This document shows positions 5,944-47,565 of a stretch of DNA of 64,000 bases, piece by piece (the first letter of the stretch is position 1; every line of letters starts with the position of its first letter). This DNA comes from Candidatus Moraniibacteriota bacterium (GTDB lineage: Bacteria > Patescibacteriota > Minisyncoccia > Moranbacterales > UBA1568). The translations under genes were made by a program, and so were the position numbers. The stretch spans positions 12,949-76,948 of the forward strand of contig CAVURJ010000001.1 of NCBI GenBank assembly GCA_963743885.1. The letters run 5' to 3'. The notes under the pieces were generated by a model. It saw only the letters and a program-made list of their open reading frames with translations. It was not told where the DNA came from and made no database searches.

Positions 5944-6435
5944 ATGAACACCCCGTGCCGTTTCGAAAAAGCCGACATCGCCTCGCCGATATTCTGTGCC
6001 TGGACCAGGCTCGAATCCCTCGCTCAACGTCATGTCTTCGGACGCGTCGGGCTGAGCTCATCGAGCTTCAAGATCCTCGCCCTGATCGCTCGCAGACGCT
6101 CAATCACCCCAAGCGATATCCTCGCCGAACTCGAGATTACCAAGTCCAACCTGAGCCAGCGACTGCGCGCCCTCGAAGAGAAGCGCCTCATCAAGCGCTC
6201 TCGGGCAGGCATATCAGACGACCGCCGCAAAGTCGCTTTCCTGATTACTCCAGCCGGAGAACGCAAGCTCCGTGAAGCAGCCCTCGTCGCCAAACAAGCC
6301 GGCCTCTCCTTTGAAAAAGACTTCACCAAAGAGGAGATCAAGCATCATCGGGCATTCTTCACAAAACTCCTCATTCTGCTCGACCAGAAAGAACAAGAGC
6401 TCAAGAAACAGCCGAAAAAAGCCATAACCAAGTAA
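5944..6435 (+). CDS. MarR-family transcriptional regulator
   Basis: 163 aa. Winged-HTH region ITPSDILAELEITKSNLSQRLRALEEKRLIKRSR...DRRKVAFLITPAGE. Confidence 0.8.
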   Translation: MNTPCRFEKADIASPIFCAWTRLESLAQRHVFGRVGLSSSSFKILALIARRRSITPSDILAELEITKSNLSQRLRALEEKRLIKRSRAGISDDRRKVAFLITPAGERKLREAALVAKQAGLSFEKDFTKEEIKHHRAFFTKLLILLDQKEQELKKQPKKAITK

Positions 6436-6450
6436 TAACCACCCTATCCT

Positions 6451-7536
6451 ATGAACAAACGCTTCCTTATCGCTACAGCCCTCGCTCTGATTCTCGGCGG
6501 ACTCGCCTTCTTTTTCTCCCGGGAAGAGTCTTCTCCGGAAAAGACCTCAGCTAATCAGACAAACGCCCCGCTTGCTGTTCGGACCGAAAGCGTCGCTGAA
6601 AGACAGTCCTCGTCTTTCCATTTCTCCTACCCCGGCACCGTCTCAAACGAAGGCGAAGCTACACTTACCGCGCAAGTCTCCGGCACGATCGTCTCGGCCG
6701 ACCTCGCCCTCAATAGATATGTCAGTGCCGGACAGACGCTCTATACTATCGACGAAACCGGTACAAGCCTTGGATCGAAGGGTGGTACACAGAGCGCCGA
6801 CCTCCAGAGCGCTGCTCTCTCGCTTGAAAACGCCAAAAAAGCCTACCAGGAAGCCGTCCGGAACGACCATCAGGAAGGCACGAGTGCTTCGGAAAGCGCC
6901 AAGATCCAGGCCCGAAACAGCCGCGATATGGCTGAGATCGCCTACGCATCGCTCCGCGACAAACGCTTCGTGAAGAGTCCGATAGCCGGAACTGTCACCA
7001 TCAAGCATGCTTCTGTCGGTGATACCGTCTCGGCCGGGACGCCGCTTGCGACCGTGAGCCGCGGCAAAAAAGTCGTGCGATTCTTCGTACATGACACAGA
7101 ACATCTGCTCCTCACCCCGGGCCAAGAGATTTCTTTCAGCAAGAATGCCGACGGCCAGGACGCCATCGTGGGCAAGCTCCTCCGCGTCGCCCAGACTGCC
7201 GACCCTGAAAGCCGGCGCTTCCTCGCCGAAGCGGAAAGTGCTGATCCGCGCTTCAAGAAATTTGCGAGCGGATCCGTCGTCACTGTATCTGCATCCGTCA
7301 CTCGGGTAGCCCCGGCTGGAAGTTTCTTCCTTCCCCTCTCCGCAGTGCTCCGCGACCAGAGCGGCGCTGCCGTGCTCGCTTATGACGATGGCCAGGCCAA
7401 GCGCCTTCCGGTCGATATCCGGAGCATCGATGGCGAGACAGTCGAGCTCTCCGGATTGAATGATACCGCGACCCGTATCATCATGACGGACGTCAAGCGC
7501 CTCAAAGAAGGTGATGCCATCACGCTCAAACAGTAA
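6451..7536 (+). CDS. efflux RND periplasmic adaptor subunit (membrane fusion protein, HlyD family)
   Basis: 361 aa. N-terminal TM anchor, lipoyl-like hairpin motifs (LTAQVSGTIVSADL...; VKSPIAGTVTIKHASVGDTVSAGTPLATV), C-terminal beta-barrel region. Confidence 0.7.
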   Translation: MNKRFLIATALALILGGLAFFFSREESSPEKTSANQTNAPLAVRTESVAERQSSSFHFSYPGTVSNEGEATLTAQVSGTIVSADLALNRYVSAGQTLYTIDETGTSLGSKGGTQSADLQSAALSLENAKKAYQEAVRNDHQEGTSASESAKIQARNSRDMAEIAYASLRDKRFVKSPIAGTVTIKHASVGDTVSAGTPLATVSRGKKVVRFFVHDTEHLLLTPGQEISFSKNADGQDAIVGKLLRVAQTADPESRRFLAEAESADPRFKKFASGSVVTVSASVTRVAPAGSFFLPLSAVLRDQSGAAVLAYDDGQAKRLPVDIRSIDGETVELSGLNDTATRIIMTDVKRLKEGDAITLKQ

Positions 7537-10500
7537 CTCATCTGGTTTCTTTCCCTTTATGCCTACTACACCGGAACACCGCGACCCATCCTCGGACTCC
7601 CGCTACCTCGATACGCTCACCTTCGACCCGGAGCTGAAGCAGGGTTTCCTCAATTTCTTCGTGACCCGCACGCGCGTCGTCATCCTCTTGATCATCCTCC
7701 TCTCCGGCTGGGGTATCTACGCTTACAATATCCTCCCGCGCGAATCGAACCCAGAGGTCAAGATCCCTATCGCCATCGTCTCCGCCGTCCTCCCTGGCGC
7801 CTCACCGAGCGACGTCGAAGAGCTCGTCACCAAAAAGATCGAGACCGAAGTCTCTTCGCTCAAAGGTGCAAGCAAAGTGACTTCGACATCATCCAACTCC
7901 GTCTCGGTCACGAGCATCGAATTTGAAGCAAGCGAAAATCTCGACGATGCCATCCGCCGCGTCCGCGATGCCGTCAACACCGTCGCTCCGGACCTGCCAG
8001 CCGAAGTCGAGACACCGACCGTCTCCGAGATCTCCTTCGATGACCAGCCGATTCTCACGATGGTCCTCACTGGCCCCTACGACGGCTTCACACTGCGCGA
8101 ACACGCCAAAACGCTCCAGGATGAGCTCGAAAAAGTCCCTGATGTCCGCGACGTGACGCTCTCGGGCGGCGATGAGGTGGAATTTTCCATCGCCTACGAC
8201 CCCGCCAAACTGGCAGTCTACGGGCTCTCGGCGGATGCCGCCAATAACGCCGTACGAAGCGCCAATATCGCCGTCCCCGGCGGCAATTTCGACGGACAAG
8301 AATTCGTCTACCCCATCCGTTCCGACGGTCGCTTCTTCGACGCGCAGGCACTCGGCGACACTCCAATCCAAAAGACAAGAAGCGGCGCTATCATCTCCCT
8401 CCGCGATATCGCAACCGTCGAGGAACGCGCCATCAAACGCACGGCACTCTCCCGCCTCTCCATCAGCGGCAGCACCCCGGAAAACGCCGTCACTATCGAT
8501 ATTGTCAAGAAAACCGGCGGCTCGATCATCGATATCGCCGACACATCGAAGAAGACCGTGGCCGATCTTCTCGCCACCTTCCCGAGCGGCATGAAGACCG
8601 ATATCACTGTCGACCTCTCGGACCAGATCAGTAATGACTTCACGCAACTCAGTCACGACTTCCTCATCACCGTCACGCTCGTCGTCATCACACTCATCCT
8701 CTTGGTCGGGCTCAAGGAGGCACTCATCGCCGGCCTCACTATCCCACTCGTCTTCTTCGCAACCTTCGGGACGATGATGCTCACCGGCACCTCGCTCAAC
8801 TTCCTCTCGCTCTTCTCGCTCCTCCTCGCACTCGGCCTCCTGGTCGATGACGCCATCGTGGTCGTTTCCGCCACCAAGCAATACCTGCGCACTGGCAAGT
8901 TCACACCGGAAGAGGCGGTACTCCTTGTGCTCCGCGACTTCAAGGTCGTACTCCTCACCACGACTCTCGCCACCACCTTCGCTTTCATGCCGCTCCTCCT
9001 CTCGAGTGGCATCATGGGAGAGTTCATCAAATCCATCCCGATCACCGTCTCAATCACGCTCATCTCCTCGCTCATCATCGCCATCGTCATCAACCATCCT
9101 CTCGCGGCTGCCCTCGAGCGCATCCGCTTCACCCGAGGCCTCTTCTCCGCACTCGCGCTCCTCGCCCTCGCTGTCGGTCTTATCGCCATCGTGTCCCTCT
9201 CGGGCATCGCCCGCTTCGCACTCGCGGCTGCTTCATTCGCCGCCTTCTTCCTCCTCATCCGCTACCGCTACCAGAGGGGTGGCGAGGCAGTCCTCAAGCA
9301 CAACGAACTCCTCGTCGAAAAAGAGCGCACGAGCGACGCCCTCATCAAAGAAAAGCTCTCTCACCAAATCAGCGACGAAGCCCACTTCATGAACCGTCTC
9401 ATGCACGGTATCGTCCGCATCGACCACTTCATCCCGCTCTATGAGCGCTGGCTCCGCTACACCCTCTCGACCAAGAAGCGCCGTCTCACGGTCGTTCTCG
9501 GCACCGTGGCCCTCTTTGTCGCGACCGCTCTCCTCCCTATCACTGGCATCGTGAAATCCGAGTTCTTCCCTGCTTCCGACGAAGAGCTTCTCTACATCAA
9601 TATCACCGCCCCGATCGGGCTGAAGCTTGAGAAAACCGATGTCATCGTGCGAGAGGTCGAAAAGACACTCCTCACCTACCCGGAAATCAAAAACTTCTCC
9701 ACCGTCGTCGGCCGCTCTTCCTCGGGCGATGGCCTCGGTAGCGGCAGCTCCTCCACGCATGTCGGGAGCATCACCGTCAAACTAACCAAGCCCGATGACC
9801 GTGACATCACCTCCTACGACCTCGCGACTGAGATCCGCGACGAGCTCGCTCCGATACGTGAAGCCGACATCACCGTCTTTTCTCCCTCAGGCGGACCGCC
9901 GGCCGGCGACGCTTTTGAAGCCCAGATACGTGGCGAAGACCTGAACGAACTCTCGCGCATCGCAGGCGATCTCAAGGATATCCTCGCGACGATCCCCGGC
10001 GTGACCGGCATCGAAGTCTCACTCAAGGAAGCCCCCGCTGAATACACCTTCACGCTCGATCCTGCCCGCATGGAGCTCTATGGCCTGGACGCTGCCTCTG
10101 TGGGCTCGACGCTGCGCATGGCTGTCTCCGGCACCGAGATCACCAAAGTCATCCGTGATACCGACGAAATCAAAGTTATCGCCCGCTTCGATGAGCGCGC
10201 GCTTCCGACGCTCCAATCGCTCCAGAACCTTCAGATCATCAACCAATCCGGTACGCCAGTCTACCTCAAAGACGTCGCGACTATCGAGCTCAAGCCGTCC
10301 GTCAACGCCATCACGCGCATCGATGAAAAACGCGTCGTGAAGCTCTCCTCCGACGTCATCGGCGACACCAACGCCCAAGAGCTCCTCAAAGCCTTCCAGG
10401 ACAAAGTCGCCGCAAGCTACACACTCCCAGACGGCTATACCTTGAGCTACGGCGGCGAAAACGAAGAGAATACAGAATCAGTGCAGTCCATCCTCAGGGC

Positions 10501-11651: not shown

Positions 11652-12392
11652 CTACTTCTCAGCAATCTCCACGCTCTTCACAACGACCGGCGTGACTGGA
11701 GAGGATCCCTCGCCGCCCGCCTTGGTCGGCGCATCAGCGATGGTGTCGACAGCCTCGAGGCCCGAGACGACATGGCCGAAGATCACATAGTTCGGCGGAA
11801 GCGGATAATCCTTGTGCATGATGAAGAACTGGCTACCGTTGGTATCCGGACCGGCGTTCGCCATCGCGATCGTGCCGCGGGTATACTGCCCCGTAAACGG
11901 CTCGTCATCGAAGCGGTAGCCCGGGCCGCCCATGCCCGTCCCCTGTGGATCTCCACCCTGGATCATGAAGCCAGGAATCGTCCGATGGAAGATCGTCCCA
12001 TCATAGAACTTCTCACGAGCAAGGAACACGAAATTGTTGACTGTGATCGGCGTCGCTGCTGCTGCGAGCTCCACCACGATATCGCCTTGGTCCGTATGGA
12101 GTGTCGCGGTATACTGCTTCTTCGCATCGATCGTCATTGCTGGTGCCTGCATATAGGTCTTTCCTTTTAGAGAATTATCCGCCTGGACCGGCGGCGTCTG
12201 CTTCGCCTGGCTCTTCGCCTCGGCTGGTTTGTCTGCCGTCTTGTCGGCAGGCTTATCAAACGTCAGCCCCGACCCCTCGGACGATTTCTCAGTCCGTACC
12301 TCCGGCGTATCCATCGAACATCCCGCAAGCGCGATGCCGCCGATGATTGCCACTGCTATCTTTTTTCTCATACGCGTCTTTGTTACTAGCAC
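11652..12392 (-). CDS. cyclophilin-type peptidyl-prolyl cis-trans isomerase, lipoprotein
   Basis: 246 aa. Lipobox IALAGCS. Cyclophilin core FHRTIPGFMIQGGDP...GPGYRFDDE...GTIAMANAGPDTNGSQFFI. Confidence 0.85.
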   Translation of the reverse strand: MLVTKTRMRKKIAVAIIGGIALAGCSMDTPEVRTEKSSEGSGLTFDKPADKTADKPAEAKSQAKQTPPVQADNSLKGKTYMQAPAMTIDAKKQYTATLHTDQGDIVVELAAAATPITVNNFVFLAREKFYDGTIFHRTIPGFMIQGGDPQGTGMGGPGYRFDDEPFTGQYTRGTIAMANAGPDTNGSQFFIMHKDYPLPPNYVIFGHVVSGLEAVDTIADAPTKAGGEGSSPVTPVVVKSVEIAEK

Positions 12393-12438
12393 ACTCCCAT
12401 CAGTATACTACATTCCCACGCACATGATACCGTTACCA

Positions 12439-12467
12439 TTGACAAGCAGCTAAAAAGGGTGTATAAT
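12439..12467 (+). promoter_or_regulatory. near-consensus sigma70 promoter (TTGACA-17 bp-TATAAT)
   Basis: TTGACA 12439-12444 and TATAAT 12462-12467, with no CDS downstream. The hexamers are verifiable by inspection. Whether this organism's sigma factor prefers them is an inference. Confidence 0.55.
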
Positions 12468-14189: not shown

Positions 14190-14292
14190 AGGTGAGAAAA
14201 TGGCTTGAACAAGTAAAAAAGCGAGCACCCGGACGGCACCCGCTTCTTTAGTTCTACATACAGTATAGCACTTTTCCGGCCGAAAATCAAGC

Positions 14293-15642
14293 CTATCTCA
14301 CCTGAAGCGTCCCGCGGTACATGCCCATCGAACAACTGAAGGGTATCTTGCCAGCGCGAGTCGGCGTGAACTCGATGATGTTCTCTCCGGGTTTGAGACG
14401 GCGCTCAATGCCGAGCTCAGGGATGACAAATGACGACGCGCAACTATATGAATCCTCCGAATTGATGATGAGGCGCACCGGTACGCCGGCCGTGAGCTCG
14501 GGCAACGTGCTCGGGTGATAGCCGTCCGCATCCTGCGTCATGCGGATGACCTGGGCATCACCAGATGTGGTAGGATCCGTCGCCGCGGCAGGACTCTGGT
14601 CTCCACTCCATCCGAAGAGGTGCCAAGCGTTCCCAATATTCCAAAGGCCAAACGCGATAAGGACGACCGCGATGATCGCGAAGAAGACCCGGCGCATCCC
14701 GCCTTGGATTGCTGTGCCCAAACCACCGAACGCGAGCAGCCCTGGCATCGTACCGAGCGCGAAGACCGCCATGATAATCGCGCCAGCGAAAGTATCACCG
14801 AGTGTAATGACGGAAAGCTGCACTGCCTGTGTGAAACCGCACGGAAGAAAGAACGTGAGAGCGCCGGAAAGGAGGGCGCCGCGATGCGAATACCCGGCTC
14901 CGTCGTGGCGGCCTGCGCCAAGCATCCGGCTGATGGCTTTCGGCAGAGTGAATGAAAAATGGCTCAAACGAGGGAAAATATCCGAGAGCTGAAGACCGAT
15001 GAGCAGCATGACAAGACCGACCAAAAGGGTCAAAAAAGCCGTCGCGGAAAGTGAAAGCTGGAGCCGTTCGCCGAAGAGCCCAAGGAGAGCACCAAAGAAC
15101 GCGAAGCCGCCGACGCGTCCGGTATTGAACCAGAGTTGTGGGATGAATTTGTCACGGAAAGAGCGCTCGGGATGAAGCTCGCTGTAGCGGGCTGCGACGC
15201 CGAGCACGAGGCCGCCGACAATCGCCGCACAGGTAGAGATACCAGCTGCGAGACCAATCAGGAACACGAGGCCGAGTCGGGAGAGATCGAGCGTCTCGGA
15301 TCCGAAGGAAGCCGAGAGCCAGCCGAGATGGCCGAGCGCGAGGTATCCGACGAAGACAAGCGCGATCGCGAAGAGTGCCGCGACATATGCTTCGAGCTCG
15401 CGCGAGACGAGCGGTAGATGCCCTGCAGCATCTGCCACTGTATAGCCGGCCGTCTCAATGACAGCCCGCACCGCCTCTTCATCGGGCGCAGTACCGTCCG
15501 AGGCGATGATGATCGTCCCAGTCCTGTGGTTGGCTTCGGCCCGAGTGACATGCGCGATCTTTGCGAGCTCGCCTTCAAGCGTCAGTTCGCACGAGCGGCA
15601 GTGCATCCCAGAAACGAATATCTTTTGTTGTGGCATAAGCAA
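14293..15642 (-). CDS. fusion protein: N-terminal heavy-metal-associated (HMA) domain, TauE/SafE-type permease, C-terminal cupredoxin-like domain
   Basis: 449 aa. GMHCRSC (GMxCxxC) at the N-terminus. A 7-8 TM core. The C-terminal ...SYSCASSFVIPELGIERRLKPGENIIEFTPTRAGKIPFSCSMGMYRGTLQV matches the Cupredoxin_1 pattern. Confidence 0.65.
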   Translation of the reverse strand: MLMPQQKIFVSGMHCRSCELTLEGELAKIAHVTRAEANHRTGTIIIASDGTAPDEEAVRAVIETAGYTVADAAGHLPLVSRELEAYVAALFAIALVFVGYLALGHLGWLSASFGSETLDLSRLGLVFLIGLAAGISTCAAIVGGLVLGVAARYSELHPERSFRDKFIPQLWFNTGRVGGFAFFGALLGLFGERLQLSLSATAFLTLLVGLVMLLIGLQLSDIFPRLSHFSFTLPKAISRMLGAGRHDGAGYSHRGALLSGALTFFLPCGFTQAVQLSVITLGDTFAGAIIMAVFALGTMPGLLAFGGLGTAIQGGMRRVFFAIIAVVLIAFGLWNIGNAWHLFGWSGDQSPAAATDPTTSGDAQVIRMTQDADGYHPSTLPELTAGVPVRLIINSEDSYSCASSFVIPELGIERRLKPGENIIEFTPTRAGKIPFSCSMGMYRGTLQVR

Positions 15643-15699
15643 AAAGAAAAGTGGTACAGAAAGTATACCACATTCCCTCTTTCAAGCTCTTTTCTTGGC

Positions 15700-15759
15700 C
15701 TACAATCCAATCCCCTCAAGAAACATCTTCTTCGCAAGGCCGCGGAGCTGGCGGCTATT
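15700..15759. repeat. 60-bp perfect direct repeat, copy A (intergenic)
   Basis: ctacaatccaatcccctcaagaaacatcttcttcgcaaggccgcggagctggcggctatt is identical to 17982-18041. Confidence 0.9.
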
Positions 15760-15777
15760 ACCGAAGAGAATACAAAT

Positions 15778-16527
15778 TTATACCGTCTTCCAAATCATCT
15801 TGAAAATGCTCTTCTGAAGATCAGCAATAGATTGGTCGCGGATGAGAACACCTATCAACGTCCGAAACGAGATAAGCGCTATCGTATCGCCATAGATAAT
15901 GAGGTCAGTCTCGAAACGGAACCCCTCCGGTAGGACCTTGCTCTTCACGAAGTTATCGTACTGCTTCAGCTTGAGATGTGCCCTGGCTGCTTCGGAACGC
16001 TCAACCAAATTATAAAGCCGGCCACCGTTCTCATAGAGACGTGTAAGGAGAGCATCGTTCTGTTCTAGGGTAAATACCCCGTAGAACTTCTCAGGCGTGA
16101 AGAACGAATAAACATCCTTGTGTGTCTCGACGATCTGCCGATAGACATCCAAAAGTCCCTCGCGCCCCTCATAAAACGCTACCGTCGGATGCGACGATGC
16201 GAGCGCATAGAGCGATTCGAGCTCAGGCAGACATTCCCCTGCTACCCGACGCTTTTCCCGGATTACCGCTTCCTCACGATCGAGGTTATGGAGCAGCTTC
16301 TTCGGGTGCTCCGGAATATACAGTGTCCTCTTCTTGCGCACCGTCTGGGAGACCAGTCCGCCTTCAAGAAGCGCGTCGATATATTCGTACGCGGTCGTAC
16401 GCTTGATTCCCGCCTCGCGCGCGATATCAGACACCGTGGCCTCGCCAAGCCGAAGCACGGCTGCATAGGCGTCCGCCTCTTTGCCGGAGAGCCCGATCCG
16501 TTCCAGTTTTTTCAACAAGCTTTCCAT
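15778..16527 (-). CDS. TrmB-family transcriptional regulator
   Basis: 249 aa. N-terminal wHTH ...LSGKEADAYAAVLRLGEATVSDIAREAGIKRTTAYEYIDALLEGGLV... plus a C-terminal TrmB-type domain. Confidence 0.7.
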   Translation of the reverse strand: MESLLKKLERIGLSGKEADAYAAVLRLGEATVSDIAREAGIKRTTAYEYIDALLEGGLVSQTVRKKRTLYIPEHPKKLLHNLDREEAVIREKRRVAGECLPELESLYALASSHPTVAFYEGREGLLDVYRQIVETHKDVYSFFTPEKFYGVFTLEQNDALLTRLYENGGRLYNLVERSEAARAHLKLKQYDNFVKSKVLPEGFRFETDLIIYGDTIALISFRTLIGVLIRDQSIADLQKSIFKMIWKTV

Positions 16528-16703
16528 GCCCCCATCCTACGCGCATTTCAAAAAGTGTCAACTATTTCCGTCACATTTTTACTCTATACGTATATTTATT
16601 GGCTTTTATAAGCATAAAACATATCATCAGTACGTATCTATTTTGCGTATTCCCATAAAGATACGTACCCTATCAGCAGATTCGTTCGGGAGCCGCGCTC
16701 CCT

Positions 16704-17225
16704 TTGACAACCAAGGAGATCGGGATGAAAATCGAAACCATTGGAAGCAACAAGGAATATGTGAGTCTCCCTTGCGGAAGAATCATCGCGAATATCCTCC
16801 GCGTAAGCGAGAATGACTACAAAACATGGAGGCGCACGGAAATTCTCGAGGAATTTTCATTCTTTGTTGGTTCTATTCTCTTTATCACCATTCTTTTGGT
16901 ATTTTTGTGGCACCTCGCGATACTGGATCGACCTGTCGTGCATGTGGAAAATACGATCAGCGGCATTCTCTCCGCCCTCGTTAAGGGAGTGTTTTTCGGT
17001 TTCCTTTTCATAGTATTGCTTACGTCCGCTGGCTTAAGCAGTCTTATGGGGCCACCCCTCATCGCATCACTTCGTATTAGAAGAAAACGAAAGGAATTTC
17101 TCCTAAATATCGGCCGGGCTGACATCGATTGTGAAAAAGTGAGTTCATATCTCTGCGATTCCATCACAAAAGGTGACGGGTATTTGATTATCGCCAAAGG
17201 GCAATCTATAGAAAGTCAGATATAA
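16704..17225 (+). CDS. hypothetical membrane protein (AT-rich insert)
   Basis: 173 aa, 3 TM helices. Lower GC than its surroundings. Alternative start at MKIETIG (16727). Confidence 0.4.
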   Translation: MTTKEIGMKIETIGSNKEYVSLPCGRIIANILRVSENDYKTWRRTEILEEFSFFVGSILFITILLVFLWHLAILDRPVVHVENTISGILSALVKGVFFGFLFIVLLTSAGLSSLMGPPLIASLRIRRKRKEFLLNIGRADIDCEKVSSYLCDSITKGDGYLIIAKGQSIESQI

Positions 17226-17235
17226 GGAGATAAAC

Positions 17236-17904
17236 ATGCCAGACAGCATCGCAATGCTCAACCGTCTCGTGTCCAAAACCGTCGCGAGCGACAAAAAAAA
17301 TGCCGCCCACCAAGCGGAAACCGACTTGAAATCCGCCGAATACCTCTGTGAGCTTAGTACATTCGAAGCCAATGCCAAACTTCTCCGCACAAAGCTCCGG
17401 CTCGAAGGCATCACACCGCTTAGCATCCTGCCCCACGCAGTTTGGGGAAAACTCTGCACTCATGCCGGAGGGTTCCTCCGATTCGATGTCCTGGTCGATA
17501 CGCAAGAGCAGAAAAAGAAGCTCGTCGCAGGAAAGATAGTGCGAGGCATCCAGAAAAAACCAGAGGGGACTGGGAACGGAAAACTGGATTTCGTTATCTT
17601 TTCAGGAATGTTTGCTCTTTGTATCATCAGTATAGTGTGCGGGATGGTTCTCTTTTCGAAACCATCGATTTACACAGCATGGAGCATAACATGGTGCCTC
17701 CTTATTTTCATCCTCCCTCAAGGAACACTCGAACTCATAGGACAAAGAAGGCTTCAAAAGACCCTGCGGACCGAGAAGAATTCCGTCGTCTACGTGACCG
17801 AGGGGTGCCGTGGGGCGGCGGTAGCGATCATCGCAAAGTGGGGAGAATTCCCCATCGAACAGACGGTGATCGACGAGGTTCTGGACTCAACCCTCTCCAT
17901 CTAA
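17236..17904 (+). CDS. hypothetical membrane protein (AT-rich insert)
   Basis: 222 aa. Central pair of TM helices. RBS aaggagataaac precedes the start. Confidence 0.45.
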   Translation: MPDSIAMLNRLVSKTVASDKKNAAHQAETDLKSAEYLCELSTFEANAKLLRTKLRLEGITPLSILPHAVWGKLCTHAGGFLRFDVLVDTQEQKKKLVAGKIVRGIQKKPEGTGNGKLDFVIFSGMFALCIISIVCGMVLFSKPSIYTAWSITWCLLIFILPQGTLELIGQRRLQKTLRTEKNSVVYVTEGCRGAAVAIIAKWGEFPIEQTVIDEVLDSTLSI

Positions 17905-17981
17905 GAACGGCAACAAGACAAATACGCGCGAAGGAAGTTCCATCTCCCTTCGCGCTTTTTTCTTATATTCCACTAAGATAT

Positions 17982-18041
17982 CTACAATCCAATCCCCTCA
18001 AGAAACATCTTCTTCGCAAGGCCGCGGAGCTGGCGGCTATT
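17982..18041. repeat. 60-bp perfect direct repeat, copy B (the last 19 codons plus stop of the pseudouridine synthase gene)
   Basis: Identical to 15700-15759. It encodes ...LRGLAKKMFLEGIGL* on the minus strand. Confidence 0.9.
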
Positions 18042-18692
18042 GCCCGGCTTCAGTGCACCGAGATAGATGCCCATGACACGCACGCGGGTCAACCGCTCGA
18101 CGGTCATACGGGCCTCCGAGAGCATGCGACGGATCTGATGCTTCTTGCCTTCAGTCAAAATAATAGAGAGCGTGTGCGGACCAGCGACCGTCACTTTCTT
18201 TGCCTTGAGCCACTCACCTTCGCTCTTGACGCCCTCCTCGAGCACTTTCTTCGCCAGAGGCGGAATATCTTCGCGAACGATCACCTCGTATTCCTTCTCG
18301 TGCTTGAAGCGCGGATGGAGTAGACGATCCGTCACGCGACCATCATCCGTCAGAATGATCAGTCCTTCCGATGCCTTGTCGAGACGGCCCACTGGAAACA
18401 AACCTGGAAAACCGGCCACTTCGGCGATGGATCGCTCATTCCCCTGCGGCGAATGTGTGATGATGCCGCGCGGCTTGTAATAGGCGATATACGTAAACTC
18501 CTTCTCTTGGGGCGTCAGGCTGCCAGAGACTTCCACAGTATCGGACTCCTCTACCTTGCTGCCAAGCTCGGCTTTCTTTCCGTTGATGCGCACTTTCCCA
18601 GATGTGATGAGATCATCGGCTCCGCGGCGCGTCGAAAACCCCTTGATCGCCAGGTAGCGATTGATGCGGATAGGATAGGTAATTTCTTCCAT
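17982..18692 (-). CDS. rRNA pseudouridine synthase, RsuA/RluB family (S4 domain plus catalytic domain)
   Basis: 236 aa. The S4 domain is RINRYLAIKGFSTRRGADDLITSGKVRINGK. The catalytic motif VGRLDKASEGLIILTDDG contains the catalytic Asp. Confidence 0.85.
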   Translation of the reverse strand: MEEITYPIRINRYLAIKGFSTRRGADDLITSGKVRINGKKAELGSKVEESDTVEVSGSLTPQEKEFTYIAYYKPRGIITHSPQGNERSIAEVAGFPGLFPVGRLDKASEGLIILTDDGRVTDRLLHPRFKHEKEYEVIVREDIPPLAKKVLEEGVKSEGEWLKAKKVTVAGPHTLSIILTEGKKHQIRRMLSEARMTVERLTRVRVMGIYLGALKPGNSRQLRGLAKKMFLEGIGL

Positions 18693-18699
18693 ACAGGTA

Positions 18700-18890
18700 T
18701 CAAGTTTGTAAAGTTTGTAAAGTCATCAAGTTCATAAAGTCTTTCAAGTTTATAAAGTCTGTAAAGTTTGTAAAGTCATCAAGTTTGTAAAGTCATCAAG
18801 TTTGTAAAGTTTGTAAAGTTATAAAGCAGAGACCCTCCGAATCAAATTATTCTTTGCTTTATAAACTTGATAACTTTCAACTTTATAAAC
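18700..18890. repeat. tandem array of about 11 copies of the 9-bp unit T(T/C)TGTAAAG, some spaced by TCATCAAG, followed by inverted copies
   Basis: caagTTTGTAAAGTTTGTAAAGtcatcaagTTCATAAAG...TTTGTAAAGtcatcaagTTTGTAAAGTTTGTAAAGTTATAAAG. Inverted copies (ctttataaacttgataactttcaactttataaac) lie at 18855-18890. The same inverted motif recurs at 19405-19430. Confidence 0.8.
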
Positions 18891-18894
18891 TCAA

Positions 18895-19290
18895 TTAATC
18901 GTTGTAGCACTTGTCGCAGCGGCAGCCCATTTCCTTGAGCGCCTCGAAATAATCACGGCCATAGTTGTAGTGGAGCTCTTCACCGGCTTTGATATTCTTC
19001 TTCGCAACGATGAAGATGCGACCGCGGCGGTTGATCGCCTCGCAATTCGGGCGGCAGGAATGGTTGATGTAGCGGGCGGTATTCCATCGCGGGCTGCCGT
19101 CGATATCCCAGCGACTGTTCACGTTGAAGATATAGAGGTTGCTCACCGTATCCTTGGCAGGAATGCGATGACCCACGTACTCGATGATGGTCGTCCCCTT
19201 CTTGATATCGATATCGGCGTACAGTCCGAGGCCCGCGCTTGAGCGCTTGACCTTGAGATGCTTCGGGTGCTCGTGCTTCTCTTGCTTCAT
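18895..19290 (-). CDS. SET-domain protein (putative lysine methyltransferase) with post-SET Cys cluster
   Basis: 131 aa. NHSCRPNCEA...ELHYNYG...CRCDKC. Confidence 0.8.
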   Translation of the reverse strand: MKQEKHEHPKHLKVKRSSAGLGLYADIDIKKGTTIIEYVGHRIPAKDTVSNLYIFNVNSRWDIDGSPRWNTARYINHSCRPNCEAINRRGRIFIVAKKNIKAGEELHYNYGRDYFEALKEMGCRCDKCYND

Positions 19291-19442
19291 ACGTTTCTTC
19301 GTCGTTTGTTACAGAAGAAAAGTATAGCACGAGTTGTCAGAAAAATCAAGCCTAACGAACCGACCTAGAAACAAAATCAGATTCTTCTAAGAGTTTCTCT
19401 TCTGCTTTACAGACTTGATAACTTTAAACCTGACACACTCAA

Positions 19443-20561
19443 TCATTTCCTCTCCAGCGTGATGACGACGATTTCCGGCGTATTACCCACGCGCATGGCC
19501 GGCCCCCAGGTTCCGACGCCGTTCGTCGTATAGATGGAATAGTCACCGATAGTGCGGAGCCCGTAGTCGAACCCGTGGTAGACGAGGCGCGTGATGAAAT
19601 TGAACGGATATTGCTGGCCCTTATGCGTATGGCCGGAGAGCTGGAGGCTCACGCCCTGCTTGGCAAACTCCTCAACGTAGATTGGCGGATGATAGAGGAG
19701 AATAATCGGCTGGCCAGCAAACCGCGGCTTGAGCGCGAGGAATTTCTCCGGCGTGCCATCGACGGTCCCGTATTCTGGACAACTAATTCCGATCACTCCA
19801 ATACCGCCGAGATCAGCCATCTCGCCGTCGAGAACCTGGATGCTGGTGTTCTGAAGAGCGTCCCGAGATTTTCCAACTCCGAGATACGTCTCGTGGTTGC
19901 CTGTGACGAAGAACGTCCCGCGCGACGGGCGGAGATCCCGGAGTGGGAGCACGAGATCATCGAGCATCCCATCCATACCGTCGAAGAGATCACCCGTAAT
20001 GAAGACCGCTTCCGGCTGCACAGCATTCACCTGATCGACAACCGACTGGAGGAAATCAGCCCGGTAGACGCTCCCGAGATGGACATCAGAGAGCTGTACG
20101 ACCCGCTTGCCCTGCCACTCTTCCGGCAAATCCTTGATCTCTACCGTGACTTCTTTCAACTGCGGATGGAAAGCGTTCCAAGCGCCGTAGATGGAGACGA
20201 GGCCCGCGATGACGATAAGCACTGATCCGATCACGGGCAGAGATGCCTCGAAGTGGACTATCTTTCCGATGAGGACGACCACCCACAAAGCGAGGAACGC
20301 GAGCACGAGATTAGTCAGGACCCCGAGCCACCACCCGGCGACGAGGTAGAGAAAGCGGATCGTCTGGTATTCGAAGAGATGCACCAGGACCGACGCCAGG
20401 ATGAAACTTATCGAGAGGAAGAGGAGCAAACCGAAAAGTACTGTCCGCTGCCCGGAAGAAAGCGCCGGAAATATCCTCGTGAGCGAGAAATACACGAACG
20501 CGTGCGCGGAGAGAAGAATCGTCTCAGCAAGGAGGAGGAAAATAATCATCTGGATACGCAT
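19443..20561 (-). CDS. membrane-anchored calcineurin-like metallophosphoesterase
   Basis: 372 aa. Four N-terminal TM helices. Phosphoesterase motifs LSDVHLG, ITGDLFDG, GNHE, GHTH. Confidence 0.85.
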   Translation of the reverse strand: MRIQMIIFLLLAETILLSAHAFVYFSLTRIFPALSSGQRTVLFGLLLFLSISFILASVLVHLFEYQTIRFLYLVAGWWLGVLTNLVLAFLALWVVVLIGKIVHFEASLPVIGSVLIVIAGLVSIYGAWNAFHPQLKEVTVEIKDLPEEWQGKRVVQLSDVHLGSVYRADFLQSVVDQVNAVQPEAVFITGDLFDGMDGMLDDLVLPLRDLRPSRGTFFVTGNHETYLGVGKSRDALQNTSIQVLDGEMADLGGIGVIGISCPEYGTVDGTPEKFLALKPRFAGQPIILLYHPPIYVEEFAKQGVSLQLSGHTHKGQQYPFNFITRLVYHGFDYGLRTIGDYSIYTTNGVGTWGPAMRVGNTPEIVVITLERK

Positions 20562-42344: not shown

Positions 42345-42611
42345 CTAATTTTCGGGAATTGAGATAACACCAGCTTTAAAGCCAAAAAAACTAAACATCT
42401 CCTCATTAAGACTCTCCACGCCCTTATCATCGTTTTGTTTAACCCGCTCCCTTTCCAATAGCTGCGTAGTGAACCCTTTCTTTGAAAAAAGAAAACCACC
42501 TTCAATCAAGTTTTTCGTATCAAAAGGCATCTGTCCATCAGGCCCAGTGTTTCTTACAACATAGGGACTTTCCAGGTACCTACTATCTTGCTCTCTGTTT
42601 ATAGTATTCAT
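42345..42611 (-). CDS. hypothetical 88-aa protein, translationally coupled to the SDH-family protease (island gene)
   Basis: Its start lies 3 nt after the protease stop. AT-rich codon usage unlike the host genes. Confidence 0.4.
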   Translation of the reverse strand: MNTINREQDSRYLESPYVVRNTGPDGQMPFDTKNLIEGGFLFSKKGFTTQLLERERVKQNDDKGVESLNEEMFSFFGFKAGVISIPEN

Positions 42612-42613
42612 AG

Positions 42614-43750
42614 CTATATAGTTGGTGTTGAAACAGGTGCTGGAAGATCAACTTTCCGCCAACCCGTATTTAATACAACTACATTACCATTAAACTGCAT
42701 ATCCAGTTTTCTTTGGATTAGTATTCTATTTTTTGCATAAAACTCCGATGAAACTCTCAGGCTTTCCAAGAAAGCATGTTTTAATTCTATCTCAATTGTA
42801 GGAAGAACCACGTTGAGTTGCTCTTGCATATAGTTCTGTAGCAACTGAAAAACTAATTGCTGGTTATTAGAAATCTGCGGTGGAATATTGATAGGAGGAG
42901 GCGACTGAAGAAGCGGAGCGGCATTTGGATCCCTCAGGTACTCAGCCAATGGATCAAATGGCATACGAGTCTTGATTTCTGATTCAAAATCCATGTGGAT
43001 ATCCCACATCATTTTTTCCAATTCTATGTCTGGCGTTATTACATTCAACCCTATTTCTTCTGCTTCTTTCCTTCCAAGAGCATGCCCATGGCTGAAAAAA
43101 CTCTTATTGAGCTTAGTTGCAATTGCATGAGCTTGTGATTTTTTTTCAGGGTCTATCATGTGCATTTGGAGCATTTTTTCCCCAATAGCTATCGATAATG
43201 AGGAAGAGCGTTTTGCAAAGCCAAGAGCTGTTGGCTCTACAACTTCACATAATTTCTCAAATGCACTTTTAATGTACTCCTGTTCCGTAATACCGGCCTC
43301 TTCTCGAACAAAACTTAAAAATGAAGCTACATCTTCATATCCAAACTCTTGAGTTGTACCATCTTTTTTTCTTGTTTTTATTTGTGGGTCTATTGGTCCT
43401 AAACAACCATACGGACCCATGACAATTTCATCGGCGCCAAGAGCTAAAAGAGTGGCCGCACTAAATGCTGAATGAGGTACCAAAACATTTACCTTTTTGA
43501 AGGATGAGCGGAGAAGTGAGATTACTCTCCAAGAAGTCAGGGGGTCTCCGCCGGTTGATTCTATAAGTAAGTCAATCGCAGTCTCCGGTGTCTTTGTTAT
43601 AGCCTGTATCTGATCAATAAACTCATCAATCACATCGCCTGCCATAGCCGCAGCAGCACCTCGTCTTTGAGAGGTAACATAAGTAACCAAAGGATTACCC
43701 CTCTTTGCTTCAATCTTCTTGTATAATTCAGCTCTTTCTGCAATTGCCAT
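42614..43750 (-). CDS. ClpP/SppA-fold serine protease of the SDH (serine dehydrogenase proteinase, S49-like) family
   Basis: 378 aa. ...LVTYVTSQRRGAAAAMAGDVIDEFIDQI...IESTGGDPLTSWRVISLLRSSFKKVNVLVPHSAFSAATLLALGADEIVMGPYGCLGPIDPQ matches the family core. The C-terminal ~150 aa are unassigned. Confidence 0.6.
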   Translation of the reverse strand: MAIAERAELYKKIEAKRGNPLVTYVTSQRRGAAAAMAGDVIDEFIDQIQAITKTPETAIDLLIESTGGDPLTSWRVISLLRSSFKKVNVLVPHSAFSAATLLALGADEIVMGPYGCLGPIDPQIKTRKKDGTTQEFGYEDVASFLSFVREEAGITEQEYIKSAFEKLCEVVEPTALGFAKRSSSLSIAIGEKMLQMHMIDPEKKSQAHAIATKLNKSFFSHGHALGRKEAEEIGLNVITPDIELEKMMWDIHMDFESEIKTRMPFDPLAEYLRDPNAAPLLQSPPPINIPPQISNNQQLVFQLLQNYMQEQLNVVLPTIEIELKHAFLESLRVSSEFYAKNRILIQRKLDMQFNGNVVVLNTGWRKVDLPAPVSTPTI

Positions 43751-43811
43751 GTAGATTCTTTAGTAATTGAATTATACCGAAATGTAGTGTAAAGTAAAGT
43801 GAAGTGAAAAT

Positions 43812-43991
43812 ATGGAAATGAAAGATGCTTTTTACACTACAGAAGAACTGGCAACTAAGCTAAAGCTGAATGTCATGACGATTTACCGCTATATTAAAGC
43901 CGGAAAGTTAAAAGCCCATAAAATCGGCAAAGAGTACCGAATTGACCGGATCGAATTCGAAAGATTCATAAAAAGCACGGAAACGAAATGA
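43812..43991 (+). CDS. excisionase/MerR-like HTH DNA-binding protein (59 aa)
   Basis: MEMKDAFYTTEELATKLKLNVMTIYRYIKAGKLKAHKIGKEYRIDRIEFERFIKS. Its stop overlaps the next start (ATGA). Confidence 0.6.
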   Translation: MEMKDAFYTTEELATKLKLNVMTIYRYIKAGKLKAHKIGKEYRIDRIEFERFIKSTETK

Positions 43992-45673
43992 GCAAGAAAA
44001 CTCAGACTCAAAAAATTCTACCATGGGAAAACGGCGAGTTAGAAACTCTTCTTCAGGGATTAATTGCTCATGGGTCGGAAGTAGCAAAAGTAGATTTCAA
44101 AACAGAAATCGCAATCAACACTCCGGAACAAAAGGCTGACCTACTCAAAGACATCATTGCTATTGCTAACACCTATGACGATAACTATGACGATCATGGG
44201 TTTATTATTTATGGAGTGAAAGCAAAAACTATAACCGGCATTTCTCAAACAGAAGTTGACGTTGATAAATTTCAAAACAACATAGAACAGCTTCTCAAAA
44301 CATATATCTCCCCAATGCCACAGATATATGTAATCGGGTTTGAAACCGCCTCTGGAGAAAAATGGGGGGCTATTGTGATACCTCCACGCAATAGCAAGCC
44401 ACACATGTTTTTCAAGGAATTATCTTGCCAAGATAAATCACGTATGCGAAGGAAAGGCGAATGGTTCGTTCGCCGAGGATCAACAACCGACCCGGGCCTT
44501 CCAGAAGATCTCGCTATTATCACTCAAAAACAGATAGAGCTAAGCCTCGAGCCATTACGAGACAGTATCCGAAGTCTTCAGATTCGTATTGCCAAAACAG
44601 AAGAACAGTACAACAGCGCCTTATTCAAACTGGTTGAGCGCGCACTTTCAGCTCTTCCAGAAAGTACTCAAAGCAGGTCGGAAGAGAAAAAAGAGGAAAT
44701 TGGCTCTGATATTGAAATAGCTCTTGGAATGGATCTTCCCGCTCGCCTCAAGCAAAAACTAAAAACTCCGACGGATAAAATAGCTGAGGACCTGATAACG
44801 GAAGCGAAAAAGATTCGTGAAATGATTGATGGTCCATCTTCTGGTATCCCCTGGACACCACAACCCAACAACCCCGATGAAAACAAACGAATTATTAACG
44901 AACTTGAAGAAAAAACCCGGGCCTTCCAAATATCAGTAGCAACAATCCTTCTAAACGATCATAAGGGTATTTATACCGATGCTCTTTTGCGTGCGATAAA
45001 AATACTCGCAAGAATGGTAGATGTGCCCAATGGCATTGCCTTTAATAGGATTGGTACGGCACTAAGATACTATCCGCTCGGATTGATTATATATACGATC
45101 TTTATTTTTGGAGTTGCTGCAAATAAGCCAGAAATACTAAGAAAGGTACTTGATCTTCCGGTAAAAGGCCGTCGAGCAGGCACAAGTGCGCACATAACAG
45201 ATATTTTCTTTTTTTGGTATGAGGCAAAGGCTCTGTTCAATGACGCATTTGCTCAAAGGTGGTGCGAACCAATAGGCCAAAGGATACGGCAAGTAATGAC
45301 TGACCATGTCAGTGATTTGCTTACTGAACTTACCGAACCAGAGTATTTTTTCAGAGGCGAATTTGTTCTCGCATTAACGCGCATTGATAAACTAACCGGG
45401 GACGGCGAAAATATTGATCGCAGGGTGCCCTTGCCAGGTCTCTACCTCTACCTTAATGAAGTACACGATATCGTAACTGATTTTCTTATCGAACATCCCA
45501 GCTGGTTTGAAAAATTCTATACTCAACCAATAAGCGAAATTCTTGATACATTTGACTGCAATGCAGATAAAATGGTCTCTCCGGGTTGCTTTGGTTCAGG
45601 GCTTCATAGCCTCAAAACCTCAAAAATATACCAGGACTCGTTACAAAAAAAGACTGTGGCGGCGCCAAAATAG
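43988..45673 (+). CDS. AlbA_2/Schlafen-like N-terminal domain protein with a ~400-aa uncharacterised C-terminal region
   Basis: 561 aa. N-terminal ...GSEVAKVDFKTEIAINTPEQKADLLKDIIAIANTYDD...GFIIYGVK fits the AlbA_2 (Schlafen-group) pattern E..EfK....ia.aN..GG.i.iGv. AT-rich. Confidence 0.55.
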   Translation: MSKKTQTQKILPWENGELETLLQGLIAHGSEVAKVDFKTEIAINTPEQKADLLKDIIAIANTYDDNYDDHGFIIYGVKAKTITGISQTEVDVDKFQNNIEQLLKTYISPMPQIYVIGFETASGEKWGAIVIPPRNSKPHMFFKELSCQDKSRMRRKGEWFVRRGSTTDPGLPEDLAIITQKQIELSLEPLRDSIRSLQIRIAKTEEQYNSALFKLVERALSALPESTQSRSEEKKEEIGSDIEIALGMDLPARLKQKLKTPTDKIAEDLITEAKKIREMIDGPSSGIPWTPQPNNPDENKRIINELEEKTRAFQISVATILLNDHKGIYTDALLRAIKILARMVDVPNGIAFNRIGTALRYYPLGLIIYTIFIFGVAANKPEILRKVLDLPVKGRRAGTSAHITDIFFFWYEAKALFNDAFAQRWCEPIGQRIRQVMTDHVSDLLTELTEPEYFFRGEFVLALTRIDKLTGDGENIDRRVPLPGLYLYLNEVHDIVTDFLIEHPSWFEKFYTQPISEILDTFDCNADKMVSPGCFGSGLHSLKTSKIYQDSLQKKTVAAPK

Positions 45674-45883
45674 CGTTAGACACAAATAATCGAGCTCTGC
45701 GAGACAAAAATAGAGACAGTAGGGTAAGTTTAGTGTGGTTTTCAAAAAGCAGAAAAGGGGCCAGGTACTTTTTTTTAGGCTTCCCTTACAATTGTACTCC
45801 CTCCAACAAAAAAACACACCCTTACGGATGTGTCTTTTCTTTATGCTCCGGCGATAGGATTCGAACCTATGACCAAGTGATTA

Positions 45884-46425
45884 CATGTGATCCTCTTGTT
45901 TCCAAGACGCATGGACTATATCATCTCCATCGCACATTGCATTAGGAGTGAGGCGCTTCGACTTTTTGCAAAGCCTACTCTCTTGCGAGATAGTCTCTGA
46001 ACCTTCCCTCTCGGGCTTGGCTGCTGATTACCATAATCGCGCTGAACGATCTTAGGCTTCCAGCAATTCACCTCATTTATCACTTTCGGATTTCTCCGAA
46101 AGGCTGCGTAGTTTTTCATGCTCCTCCCTGTGGCAATTCGCGCATATCAGGGTGCATTTTTTCAGTTCTTTCTCAATCCGCTCCCAACTTCTTGTCAGGC
46201 CATCTTGAGATATACCGAAATCTTTCCTTCCATCAATATGATGGAATTCAAGAGCACCGAAACAGCGATTATACCCACAGCGGGAGCATTTTCCGCCTTT
46301 GTATTCGATAGCGCGCAGTCGCATCATCTTACGACGCTTTGCAACGGCCCGCTTCAAATACTCTCGACGGTCAGCATAGGTTCTTGTGTCTGGCATACAT
46401 AAATAAGTATACCACACATGTTTCC
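45884..46425 (-). other. group I (IC3-like) self-splicing intron within tRNA-Asn
   Basis: The 5' exon ends in U and the intron ends in G (omega-G, ...CACAUG|UAA...). The 3' core carries the P7/J6-7 hallmark sequences UUCAGAGACUA and GAUAUAGUCC, a P8-like hairpin CUCUCGCAAGAGAG, and a P9 hairpin GUCUUGG-AAA-CAAGAGGA. The ORF sits near the 5' end, in the P1/P2 region. Confidence 0.75.
46073..46417 (-). CDS. HNH homing endonuclease encoded inside the group I intron
   Basis: 114 aa. CSRCGY...FHHIDG...CANCH, an HNH motif with two CxxC pairs. GTG start is 6 nt after the 5' splice site; an internal Met (MPDTR) is the alternative. Confidence 0.7.
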   Translation of the reverse strand: MWYTYLCMPDTRTYADRREYLKRAVAKRRKMMRLRAIEYKGGKCSRCGYNRCFGALEFHHIDGRKDFGISQDGLTRSWERIEKELKKCTLICANCHREEHEKLRSLSEKSESDK

Positions 46426-46618
46426 ACAGTCACCTGCTCTACCACTGAGCTACGCCGGAATATTCTGTTGTCAAATCGCCCTTTTGGACGATGGCGTCAT
46501 TGTACGCGAAAAGAAAGAAAAAGGCAAGAGAAAGCCCCTGCTTCGCACGGAAGACAGGGGACTTGAGAGATCGGGAAACGTTACCCGAAGGCGAGAACGA
46601 CTTGACCGTGAACAGGTA

Positions 46619-46939
46619 TCAAATCGGCAGCGGCCGTTGACCGAAATTCATCGGGAAAAACGGCGCCACTTCCGGCTGATAAGCATCGTCGCCGAGGGCA
46701 GACTTGAGGACGAACGACGGCTCATCGGATACGGCGCCGGCCATGCACGCGAGCGTCTTTTCGGCTTCAACCGTATTGAGCTTCTGAAGCGCGTATCCGG
46801 TATGGACGATCACATAGTCACCGACCCTGATACCGTCAACCAATGCGAGTGAAACCTCTTTCTGCACGCCATCCATGTCGACGATGGCGCCACCGCCGGC
46901 CGTCAGACTGGCTACTTTCACAGGTATTGCGAGACACAT
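46619..46939 (-). CDS. hypC: [NiFe] hydrogenase maturation factor HypC/HybG family
   Basis: 106 aa. Hallmark N-terminus MCLAIP, then ...VDGIRVGDYVIVHTGYA. Confidence 0.8.
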   Translation of the reverse strand: MCLAIPVKVASLTAGGGAIVDMDGVQKEVSLALVDGIRVGDYVIVHTGYALQKLNTVEAEKTLACMAGAVSDEPSFVLKSALGDDAYQPEVAPFFPMNFGQRPLPI

Positions 46940-47033
46940 GATGTGCTCCTTTTCGTAAGAACTACAGGGAAAATACCCTTCTGAAGCTAGTATATCAAAT
47001 CCCCTGTTTTTCCGATATACTATGAAAAGTCCT

Positions 47034-47059
47034 GGATTCCCGCCTTCGCGGGAATGACA
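47034..47059. repeat. REP/MITE-like hairpin element ggattcccg-ccttc-gcgggaatgaca
   Basis: Palindrome followed by ATGACA. Related copies lie at 47566-47592 (reverse orientation), 47603-47629 and 54204-54230. Confidence 0.6.
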
Positions 47060-47077
47060 GAAGAATAAAACTAACGA

Positions 47078-47095
47078 ATCCGCCAGCTGGCGGAT
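47078..47095. repeat. 18-bp perfect palindrome ATCCGCCAGCTGGCGGAT (second copy)
   Basis: Identical to the core of the bidirectional terminator at 13441-13471. Confidence 0.7.
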
Positions 47096-47115
47096 AAAAA
47101 GCTACAAGCTACCGT

Positions 47116-47496: not shown

Positions 47497-47503
47497 AAGA
47501 CAA

Positions 47504-47535: not shown

Positions 47536-47565
47536 ATGTGCTTTGAATTACGAAACCCTTTTTTC

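Follow-up and report, generated by a model that had tools for sequence, protein, structure and literature searches.

A TrmB and membrane-protein gene cassette inserted at the 3' end of a pseudouridine synthase gene, with duplication of that end, in a Moranbacteria-like bacterium

Within a stretch of 64,000 nt from a Candidatus Moraniibacteriota bacterium (assembly GCA_963743885.1, contig CAVURJ010000001.1, positions 12,949 to 76,948 of the forward strand; hereafter the window) we have identified a small cassette, made up of a gene for a TrmB-family regulator and two genes for hypothetical membrane proteins, that was inserted 60 bases before the end of a pseudouridine synthase gene, the end of which is duplicated. 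The synthase protein retrieves genomes of uncultured Moranbacteria-like members of the candidate phyla radiation (CPR). The genomes of the CPR (Patescibacteria) are very small and contain few classical mobile elements, and it is poorly understood how they acquire genes. The locus is best accommodated by a known class of events, termed 'insertion with long target duplication' (Nobusato 2000, Gene 259:99; Furuta, Abe and Kobayashi 2010, PMC2853133), the mechanism of which is unsolved.

Duplication of the synthase gene end

The 60-mer CTACAATCC...GGCGGCTATT occurs in only two copies in the window, R1 and R2 (Table 1), which are identical at all positions (60/60) and lie 2,282 nt apart from start to start; no match to the 60-nt repeat was obtained in 100 dinucleotide-preserving shuffles. 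Beyond the perfect stretch the similarity continues in register to 63 nt with a single mismatch (ACC versus GCC), which on the coding (minus) strand reads GGT versus GGC, both glycine codons. R2 encodes NSRQLRGLAKKMFLEGIGL followed by the stop codon and is the C-terminus of the 236-aa open reading frame (ORF) of the synthase, whereas R1 is an orphan, as the initial annotation of this region, made from the sequence alone, had stated. The synthase ORF scored above the cut-off of the pseudouridine synthase subfamily TIGR00093; its best named similarities were to RluF, RluB and RsuA, all of them under the respective equivalog cut-offs. In comparison with its relatives the ORF is full-length and uninterrupted, the duplicated end having restored the target gene; because its last 60 bases stand on both sides of the insert, the gene has been kept whole. 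When its folding was compared with that of shuffled sequences, the 60-mer folded no better than they did (z-scores of -1.4 and -0.7).

Content of the cassette

Read from R2 towards R1, the cassette consists of 20 nt, a bidirectional terminator, the two membrane-protein genes, a divergent promoter/operator region, the TrmB gene and a final 18 nt, so that the TrmB stop codon lies 18 nt from R1 and the gene is read towards R1 and the adjoining gene for a membrane protein with HMA, DsbD_2 and cupredoxin domains (the HMA gene). The gene content given in the initial annotation, namely a TrmB regulator and two hypothetical membrane proteins without an integrase, is upheld by a Pfam match of the former to PF01978, by hydrophobic stretches in both of the latter, and by the lack of any integrase, transposase or defence-system match of the three proteins in Pfam, PHROGs, PADLOC and NCBIfam. 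The visibly lower G+C content (GC) noted for the insert needs more qualification. At 0.488, against a window mean of 0.536 (standard deviation 0.039, 2.2-kb windows), the GC of the insert is equalled or undercut by 8.5% of 2.2-kb windows, so that the decrease is real but modest and 'AT-rich' holds only in a relative sense; the sole clearly low-GC gene is that for the first membrane protein (GC 0.437, and 0.485 at third codon positions), which drives most of the drop.

Profile searches of the TrmB protein against PDB matched AF2008, TrmB (3qph) and TrmBL2, and its PADLOC matches were confined to the winged-helix part. The divergent promoter region contains three TACGTA motifs (16585-16668), among them a perfect inverted repeat of 10 nt, the arms of which (GTACGTATCT at 16630-16639 and AGATACGTAC at 16659-16668) are 19 nt apart; this is a candidate TrmB operator. 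The proximal part of the region is conserved with L019, a 1.45-kb contig with homologous copies of both membrane-protein genes, and TTGACACTTTTT is found upstream of TrmB also in the TrmB-bearing loci L020, L025 and L029. The homolog of membrane protein 1 in L019 is 61% identical; the protein gave no match to any family in the four collections named above. A search for membrane protein 2 among 5.8 billion proteins returned only the protein itself and one homolog of 55% identity, the latter being the identity of the L019 copy. A profile search led to a distant family of proteins of about 330 aa, of which none of 10 sampled members reached a curated Pfam cut-off. The AlphaFold2 model of membrane protein 2 was unusable, with a predicted local distance difference test score (pLDDT) of 45.7.

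Comparison with related loci

The closest relative found, locus L112, was reached through a search with the HMA-DsbD-cupredoxin protein and shows 80-86% nucleotide identity, with SET 98% identical; its synthase is 94% identical to that of the window at the amino acid level, as against 78% for locus L001 and 69% for locus L002. In L001 and L002 the genes follow the order metallophosphoesterase, SET, synthase, p222 (encoding a 222-aa protein), cyclophilin and AcrB-like pump, with p222 beginning 167-177 bp after the synthase gene. In L112 the interval between synthase gene and p222 holds a five-gene copper island, which comprises genes for a multicopper oxidase, a SHOCT protein, a CsoR-type repressor, an HMA protein and a P-type ATPase. 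Each of the three loci has a single 3' end of the synthase gene (rsuA) and no TrmB cassette. These comparisons bear out the reading of the locus as an insertion, which the initial annotation had put forward together with a proposal to look for an empty site in related genomes. That site was found in so far as there is a single rsuA end and no cassette in L112, L001 and L002, but in L112, the nearest of them, it bears other genes in the form of the copper island. The same annotation had offered a recombination hot spot as an alternative, and this too has gained support: the rsuA-p222 interval is empty in L001 and L002, is occupied by the copper island in L112 and holds the HMA gene and the cassette in the window, and because there are thus three different contents among four relatives we consider it to be a hot spot. 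No third, degenerate copy of the rsuA end, which would be a sign of tandem accretion, was found between the HMA gene and p222. As to the copper island itself, it lies at 5972-8395 and 9744-12149 in L112, as compared with 15638-15699 and 14293 in the window, which retains only the HMA-DsbD-cupredoxin gene.

It is important for the interpretation of the duplication that the two flanks be assigned to cassette or chromosome. As the HMA gene is absent from L001 and L002, we considered whether it might be part of the insertion, and rejected this since L112 and others have an HMA gene at the locus; indeed, HMA homologs adjoin the p222 or the cyclophilin (peptidyl-prolyl isomerase) gene in contigs from other relatives. 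Because L112 and these other relatives carry the HMA gene here, and the cassette is missing from L112, L001 and L002, the gene is resident and the cassette is the newcomer, and because the gene is conserved in L112 the flank beyond R1 is chromosomal. Homology between the window and L112 through the synthase gene ends at 17981, a single base beyond the last base of the stop codon (17982), and resumes at the ATG of the HMA gene. On the other side, the terminator that follows the homolog of membrane protein 2 is conserved between L019 and the window, with similarity stopping just past the T run, and no rsuA-derived sequence is present beside the membrane-gene module of L019. Since its terminator is held in common with the L019 cassette, the flank on the R2 side is cassette DNA. 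In order, therefore, the locus consists of the body of the chromosomal gene, R2, the cassette, R1 and the chromosomal DNA downstream, an arrangement that a crossover inside R produces. R1 is 78.6% identical to the rsuA end of L112 over 70 nt, including 13 nt of downstream flank, although the likeness of this A/G-rich 13-nt flank is weak and provides a hint only.

A metagenome scan with the HMA homolog P0015 found relatives at 41-51% identity only and missed the contig of P0015 itself, exact-protein look-ups of RsuA, membrane protein 2 and the HMA protein found no record, and a degenerate form of the 60-mer (N at third codon positions) had no match in metagenome contigs.

TrmB cassettes in other CPR contigs

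Homologs of the TrmB protein, with 44-67% identity, are encoded in further contigs from the CPR, where each gene adjoins a small ORF that is transcribed divergently, varies in family and is hydrophobic wherever its sequence was read. The contexts of the TrmB homologs are unrelated to one another: the space between rpsJ and rplC in L020, the region after an M48 peptidase gene in L022 and the vicinity of a tRNA-Gly gene in L027. In L020 (9187-10750) a 67% identical TrmB homolog and a divergent 204-aa ORF stand within the S10 ribosomal-protein operon; an 18-nt repeat flanking them scored no better than shuffled controls and has not been counted. In L027 (8847-8971) a distance of 50 nt separates the end of the cassette from the 3' end of a tRNA-Gly(GCC) gene, the first of a tRNA cluster. 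The initial annotation had suggested checking whether homologs of the cassette genes lie at tRNA or rluB ends elsewhere; no duplication of the tRNA end was found in L027 and, as described above, L019 has no rsuA-derived sequence beside its membrane-gene module.

A scan for direct repeats of at least 30 nt in 112 fetched loci (about 1.3 Mb, mostly CPR contigs) identified one further gene-end duplication around an insert, and no others. This is a second TrmB cassette, from another CPR lineage, present in L029, L030 and L031, which are three assemblies from different samples that are 98.8-99.5% mutually identical. On either side of it stands a copy of a 48-nt repeat, by which the 5' end of tsaD is duplicated. 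The right copy, which begins 4 nt past the TrmB stop codon, comprises one base and nucleotides 1-47 of tsaD; the left, orphan copy has kept an overlap (ATGA) with the stop codon of a DHH-type gene upstream. The full order in L029 is orphan 48 nt, 26-nt spacer, bidirectional terminator, convergent membrane gene, promoter, TrmB, 4 nt and intact tsaD, so that the two cassettes have a common anatomy of repeat, spacer, terminator, membrane gene or genes, promoter and TrmB, with the second repeat following after 4-18 nt. In both cases (2/2) the repeat is bounded on its outer side by the edge of a coding sequence, namely the end of the stop codon in the window and 1 nt before the ATG in L029. The L029 copies differ at 3 of 48 positions, all of them third-codon synonymous transitions (chance P about 0.01-0.03), a pattern matched by bases 61-63 of the window repeat (GGT versus GGC). 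This suggests, from the nature of the substitutions, that two functional and slightly diverged alleles were joined by recombination, rather than that one sequence was duplicated and then decayed.

Search for a recombinase

Scanning of 36 ORFs across the window with Pfam revealed no recombinase, and no intI was found. Nor is there room in the insert for a decayed integrase or other gene remnant, because its non-coding pieces measure only 18, 197, 10 and 77 nt. No terminal inverted repeats pairing the insert ends and no tRNA genes in the window were found, and Rfam matched nothing at or near the locus or in L019 or L025. Phage and viral-contig collections contained no relative of TrmB (viral scans with TrmB, membrane protein 2 and a TrmB alignment, and tblastn of TrmB in phages), while tblastn of TrmB in plasmids retrieved only distant, approximately 27% identical homologs, on proteobacterial plasmids and without mobility association. 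Three kinds of element were considered and rejected: an integron gene cassette, as the 60-mer lacks an attC-like fold and no intI was found in the window; a DDE transposon or insertion sequence, as neither terminal inverted repeats nor a transposase were found and the duplication measures 60 nt; and a tRNA-targeting element, as the window has no tRNA.

A decayed or non-autonomous site-specific element deserves fuller consideration, and it was as site-specific integration with duplication of an att site that the initial annotation had explained the locus. Here the 60-mers would be attL and attR, and a tyrosine integrase would have been lost or would act in trans, as in the cis-mobilizable elements (CIMEs), which by definition keep attL and attR but no longer have the genes for their integration (PMC5704250). 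Elements of this type classically reveal themselves by a duplicated gene 3' end through which the target is restored, and a repeat ending exactly at the stop codon is what would be expected of an evolved attP mimicking a gene end. Like a CIME, the cassette is bounded by direct repeats, one of them the 3' end of a housekeeping gene, and carries no integration genes. However, a CIME derives from a decayed integrative and conjugative or integrative and mobilizable element and depends on the integrase of a related element (PMC5704250), whereas neither a remnant, nor a related element, nor an integrase in the insert or in 36 ORFs of the window was found here. The cassette instead holds three intact genes, with no pseudogene remnant and little space for arm sites; there is no tandem partner at the locus, both sides of which are conserved chromosomal genes; and no integrase-bearing relative came to light in the phage and viral-contig collections, the plasmid homologs being distant. 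Furthermore, the homologous L019 cassette has no rsuA-like neighbouring sequence, and the sister cassette in L029 uses an unrelated repeat taken from a 5' gene end. On these grounds we did not retain site-specific integration and now regard a CIME-like origin as unlikely.

Origin of the duplication

Our current working hypothesis is that host homologous recombination took place within a gene-end fragment carried by the incoming DNA, a proposal to which we would give an even chance. DNA bearing a short homology to the synthase gene end would have been joined to the chromosome by host recombination, with no need for a cassette-encoded recombinase. This might have occurred by a single Campbell-type crossover with a circular molecule consisting of the cassette plus R or, alternatively, from linear transforming DNA through one homologous and one illegitimate joint. 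Later recombination between R1 and R2 would release a circle with one R and restore the empty site, and the released circle could use the same 60 bp to integrate again in any related genome. For the locus, the insertion would have several consequences: the putative terminator at the cassette edge would now end the membrane operon and the synthase gene alike, the HMA gene would now lie downstream of TrmB on the same strand, and the cassette would still be precisely deletable. The unequal L029 copies, with differences that are all synonymous, are to be expected under homologous recombination with donor DNA from functional alleles.

The repeats might alternatively be a true target-site duplication that arose during insertion of a cassette without homology, either by filling in of a staggered break of about 50-60 nt or by a template switch resembling microhomology-mediated break-induced replication. 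That the repeats are long and of variable length at unrelated targets (60 nt here and 48 nt in L029) is in keeping with such an origin and matches the 'long and variable' duplications of the class defined by Nobusato and Furuta, for which double-strand breakage was proposed. A random stagger would not, however, predict that the repeat edge is a coding-sequence edge in both cases, the three synonymous L029 differences suggest two functional alleles, and by reading of the sequences we saw no clear microhomology at the junctions. We therefore consider a target-site duplication to be distinctly unlikely.

An effect of assembly must also be considered, in which an empty site and a free 2.28-kb circle, or two strain variants, have been threaded through the shared 60-mer. 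The de Bruijn graph is identical for the integrated form and for an empty site plus circle, and a TrmB-bearing Logan contig (1.7 kb, run ERR12035942) stops 48 nt past the TrmB stop codon, i.e. 30 nt into the repeat. These 30 nt equal k-1 for k=31, which we take to be the Logan setting, and the contig end shows only that the graph branches within the repeat. On the other hand, three independent assemblies, each from a different sample, show the L029-type structure, and a circle of three genes, none of them for replication, is unlikely to be maintained alone. Moreover, both junctions, from repeat to cassette and from cassette to repeat, must exist in the reads in any case, and the cassette with an attached rsuA end is real for that reason. 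We regard an assembly effect as very improbable.

Several considerations nevertheless weigh against recombination through a carried gene end. The integrated form and a mixture of empty site and excised circle look alike in an assembly; the circular or linear donor carrying the exact gene end is hypothetical; homology-facilitated illegitimate recombination is known mainly to delete, not to duplicate, recipient DNA; an integrase encoded outside the 64-kb window may act in trans; and the argument from synonymous differences is based on three sites. In addition, the TrmB contexts in L020, L022, L026 and L027 show no flanking repeat above shuffled controls. Because these four contexts lack a repeat, the recurrence of repeat-flanked TrmB cassettes rests on two cases, one of them the ascertained one, and amounts to a hint.

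With recombination through a carried gene end as the preferred reading, comparison with known systems is instructive. The class of insertions with long target duplication is characterized by repeats of more than 30 bp, inserts of less than 20 kb, the absence of mobility genes and an empty site in a relative; its repeats, of 46-423 bp, frequently extend across a start or stop codon, which lets the target gene survive, and its cases come mostly from naturally competent species (PMC2853133). The window insertion is similar in having a repeat longer than 30 bp (60/60 nt), an insert of 2,222 bp, no mobility gene and a single copy of the repeat at the empty site of relatives, as well as in a repeat length that varies by event (60 and 48 nt in the two cassettes). 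It differs in its cargo, a TrmB regulator and membrane proteins as opposed to the restriction-modification genes of the published cases, in its host, a Moranbacteria-like member of the CPR as opposed to proteobacteria, cyanobacteria, Thermus and an actinobacterium, and in that the repeat ends at the edge of the coding sequence and does not span it. The microcin H47 island of Escherichia coli and other 'unconventional circularizable structures' are likewise small, flanked by direct repeats and without a site-specific recombinase (PMC5426353). Excision of that island at its repeats, by host functions and independently of RecA, has been shown experimentally (PMC5426353), whereas the window cassette is known from sequence alone. 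Homology-facilitated illegitimate recombination during natural transformation (PMC3240628) resembles the second of the two routes envisaged above, in combining one homologous with one illegitimate joint and requiring no element-encoded enzyme.

A bolder extension, which we think rather unlikely, is that TrmB and membrane-protein cassettes make up an unrecognised family of small, recombinase-less mobile cassettes of the CPR. Members would have captured a 50-60-nt end of a housekeeping gene (rsuA 3', tsaD 5') as a homing arm and would insert inside that gene end while rebuilding it, placing the neighbouring gene under read-through from the TrmB promoter. In a more radical version the TrmB-like protein may itself take part in insertion.

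Table 1. Features of the insertion locus and of the loci compared with it (window positions unless a locus is named)
Feature	Position	Strand	Basis
R1, orphan copy of the last 19 codons and stop codon of the synthase gene	15700..15759	-	Similarity continues to 15762 with one synonymous-type mismatch
R2, functional copy, true 3' end of the synthase gene (19 codons and TAG)	17982..18041	-	Repeat search, ORF
RsuA/RluB/RluF-family pseudouridine synthase, intact target gene	17982..18692	-	S4 and PseudoU_synth_2 domains
Inserted cassette, 2,222 bp	15760..17981	.	Missing from relatives L112, L001 and L002
TrmB-family winged-helix regulator, 249 aa	15778..16527	-	Pfam PF01978, E 2e-14
Divergent promoter and candidate operator region, 197 nt	16528..16724	.	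TTGACA/TAGGAT promoter-like site for TrmB
Hypothetical membrane protein 1, 166 aa, two long hydrophobic stretches	16725..17225	+	Hydropathy; lowest GC in insert
Hypothetical membrane protein 2, 222 aa, two long hydrophobic stretches	17236..17904	+	Hydropathy; no family match
G+C-rich hairpin with T runs, bidirectional terminator-like site, part of the cassette	17926..17955	.	Conserved with L019
Terminator-like hairpin and T run, candidate original synthase terminator (putative role)	15651..15671	-	28 nt past the orphan stop codon, just upstream of the HMA gene start
HMA-DsbD_2-cupredoxin membrane protein, resident chromosomal gene beyond the insertion	14293..15636	-	Pfam; 82% identical homolog at the same locus of L112
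48-nt repeat copies	L029 465-512 and 2177-2224 (also L030, L031)	.	45/48 identical
p222-upstream motif	Window 14215-14285; L001 10853-10915; L002 10800-10860; L112 12168-12225	- (window)	Sequence conservation
Array of 8-9-nt units and SET-flanking repeat	18698-18837, 18851-18895, 19403-19443	.	Sequence reading

Other features of the window

A conserved motif of about 60 nt (...GTGCTATACTGTATGTAGAACTAAAGAAGCGGGTGCCGTCCGGGTGCTCG TTTTTT) is present upstream of p222 in all four relatives (4/4) and may comprise a promoter and leader; it had no match in Rfam. In L112 this motif is separated from the p222 start codon by an insertion of about 210 bp (approximately 12225-12440), which has terminal inverted repeats, resembles a miniature inverted-repeat transposable element and has no counterpart in the window. 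An array of about 140 bp composed of 8-9-nt units (AAGTTTGTA / AAGTCATC), with inverted partial copies, is situated directly upstream of the synthase gene, and the SET-domain gene lies between the two copies (83% identical) of a 41-nt direct repeat. A motif of about 42 nt (...TATCTCTCATCTTCTTCATCTATCCCCT) is found between genes five times, at 5817, 11495, 13154, 25991 and 26039. A low-GC island (about 0.40) at 42600-47600, far more deviant in composition than the insert, encodes an SDH/ClpP-like protease and a Schlafen AlbA_2 protein (PADLOC candidate families PDC-S50 and PDC-S65), together with a small ORF at 46073-46417 on the minus strand that was judged by eye, from its CxxC and HH motifs, to be HNH-like.

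Significance

Taken alone, the cassette is a small and fairly ordinary genomic islet, and one such islet will be of little surprise to the specialist. The kind of insertion is already known; what is new is a cargo other than restriction-modification genes in a CPR host. The locus nevertheless represents a clean and, to judge from its 60/60 repeats, apparently recent gain of genes without an element-encoded recombinase. If general, insertion with long target duplication by way of short gene-end homology would provide the CPR with a route for gene flow, and a class that has hitherto been described for restriction-modification genes would be widened. Owing to the recurrence of the cassette design and to the clean series of empty sites, recombinase-free gene gain in the CPR is directly testable.

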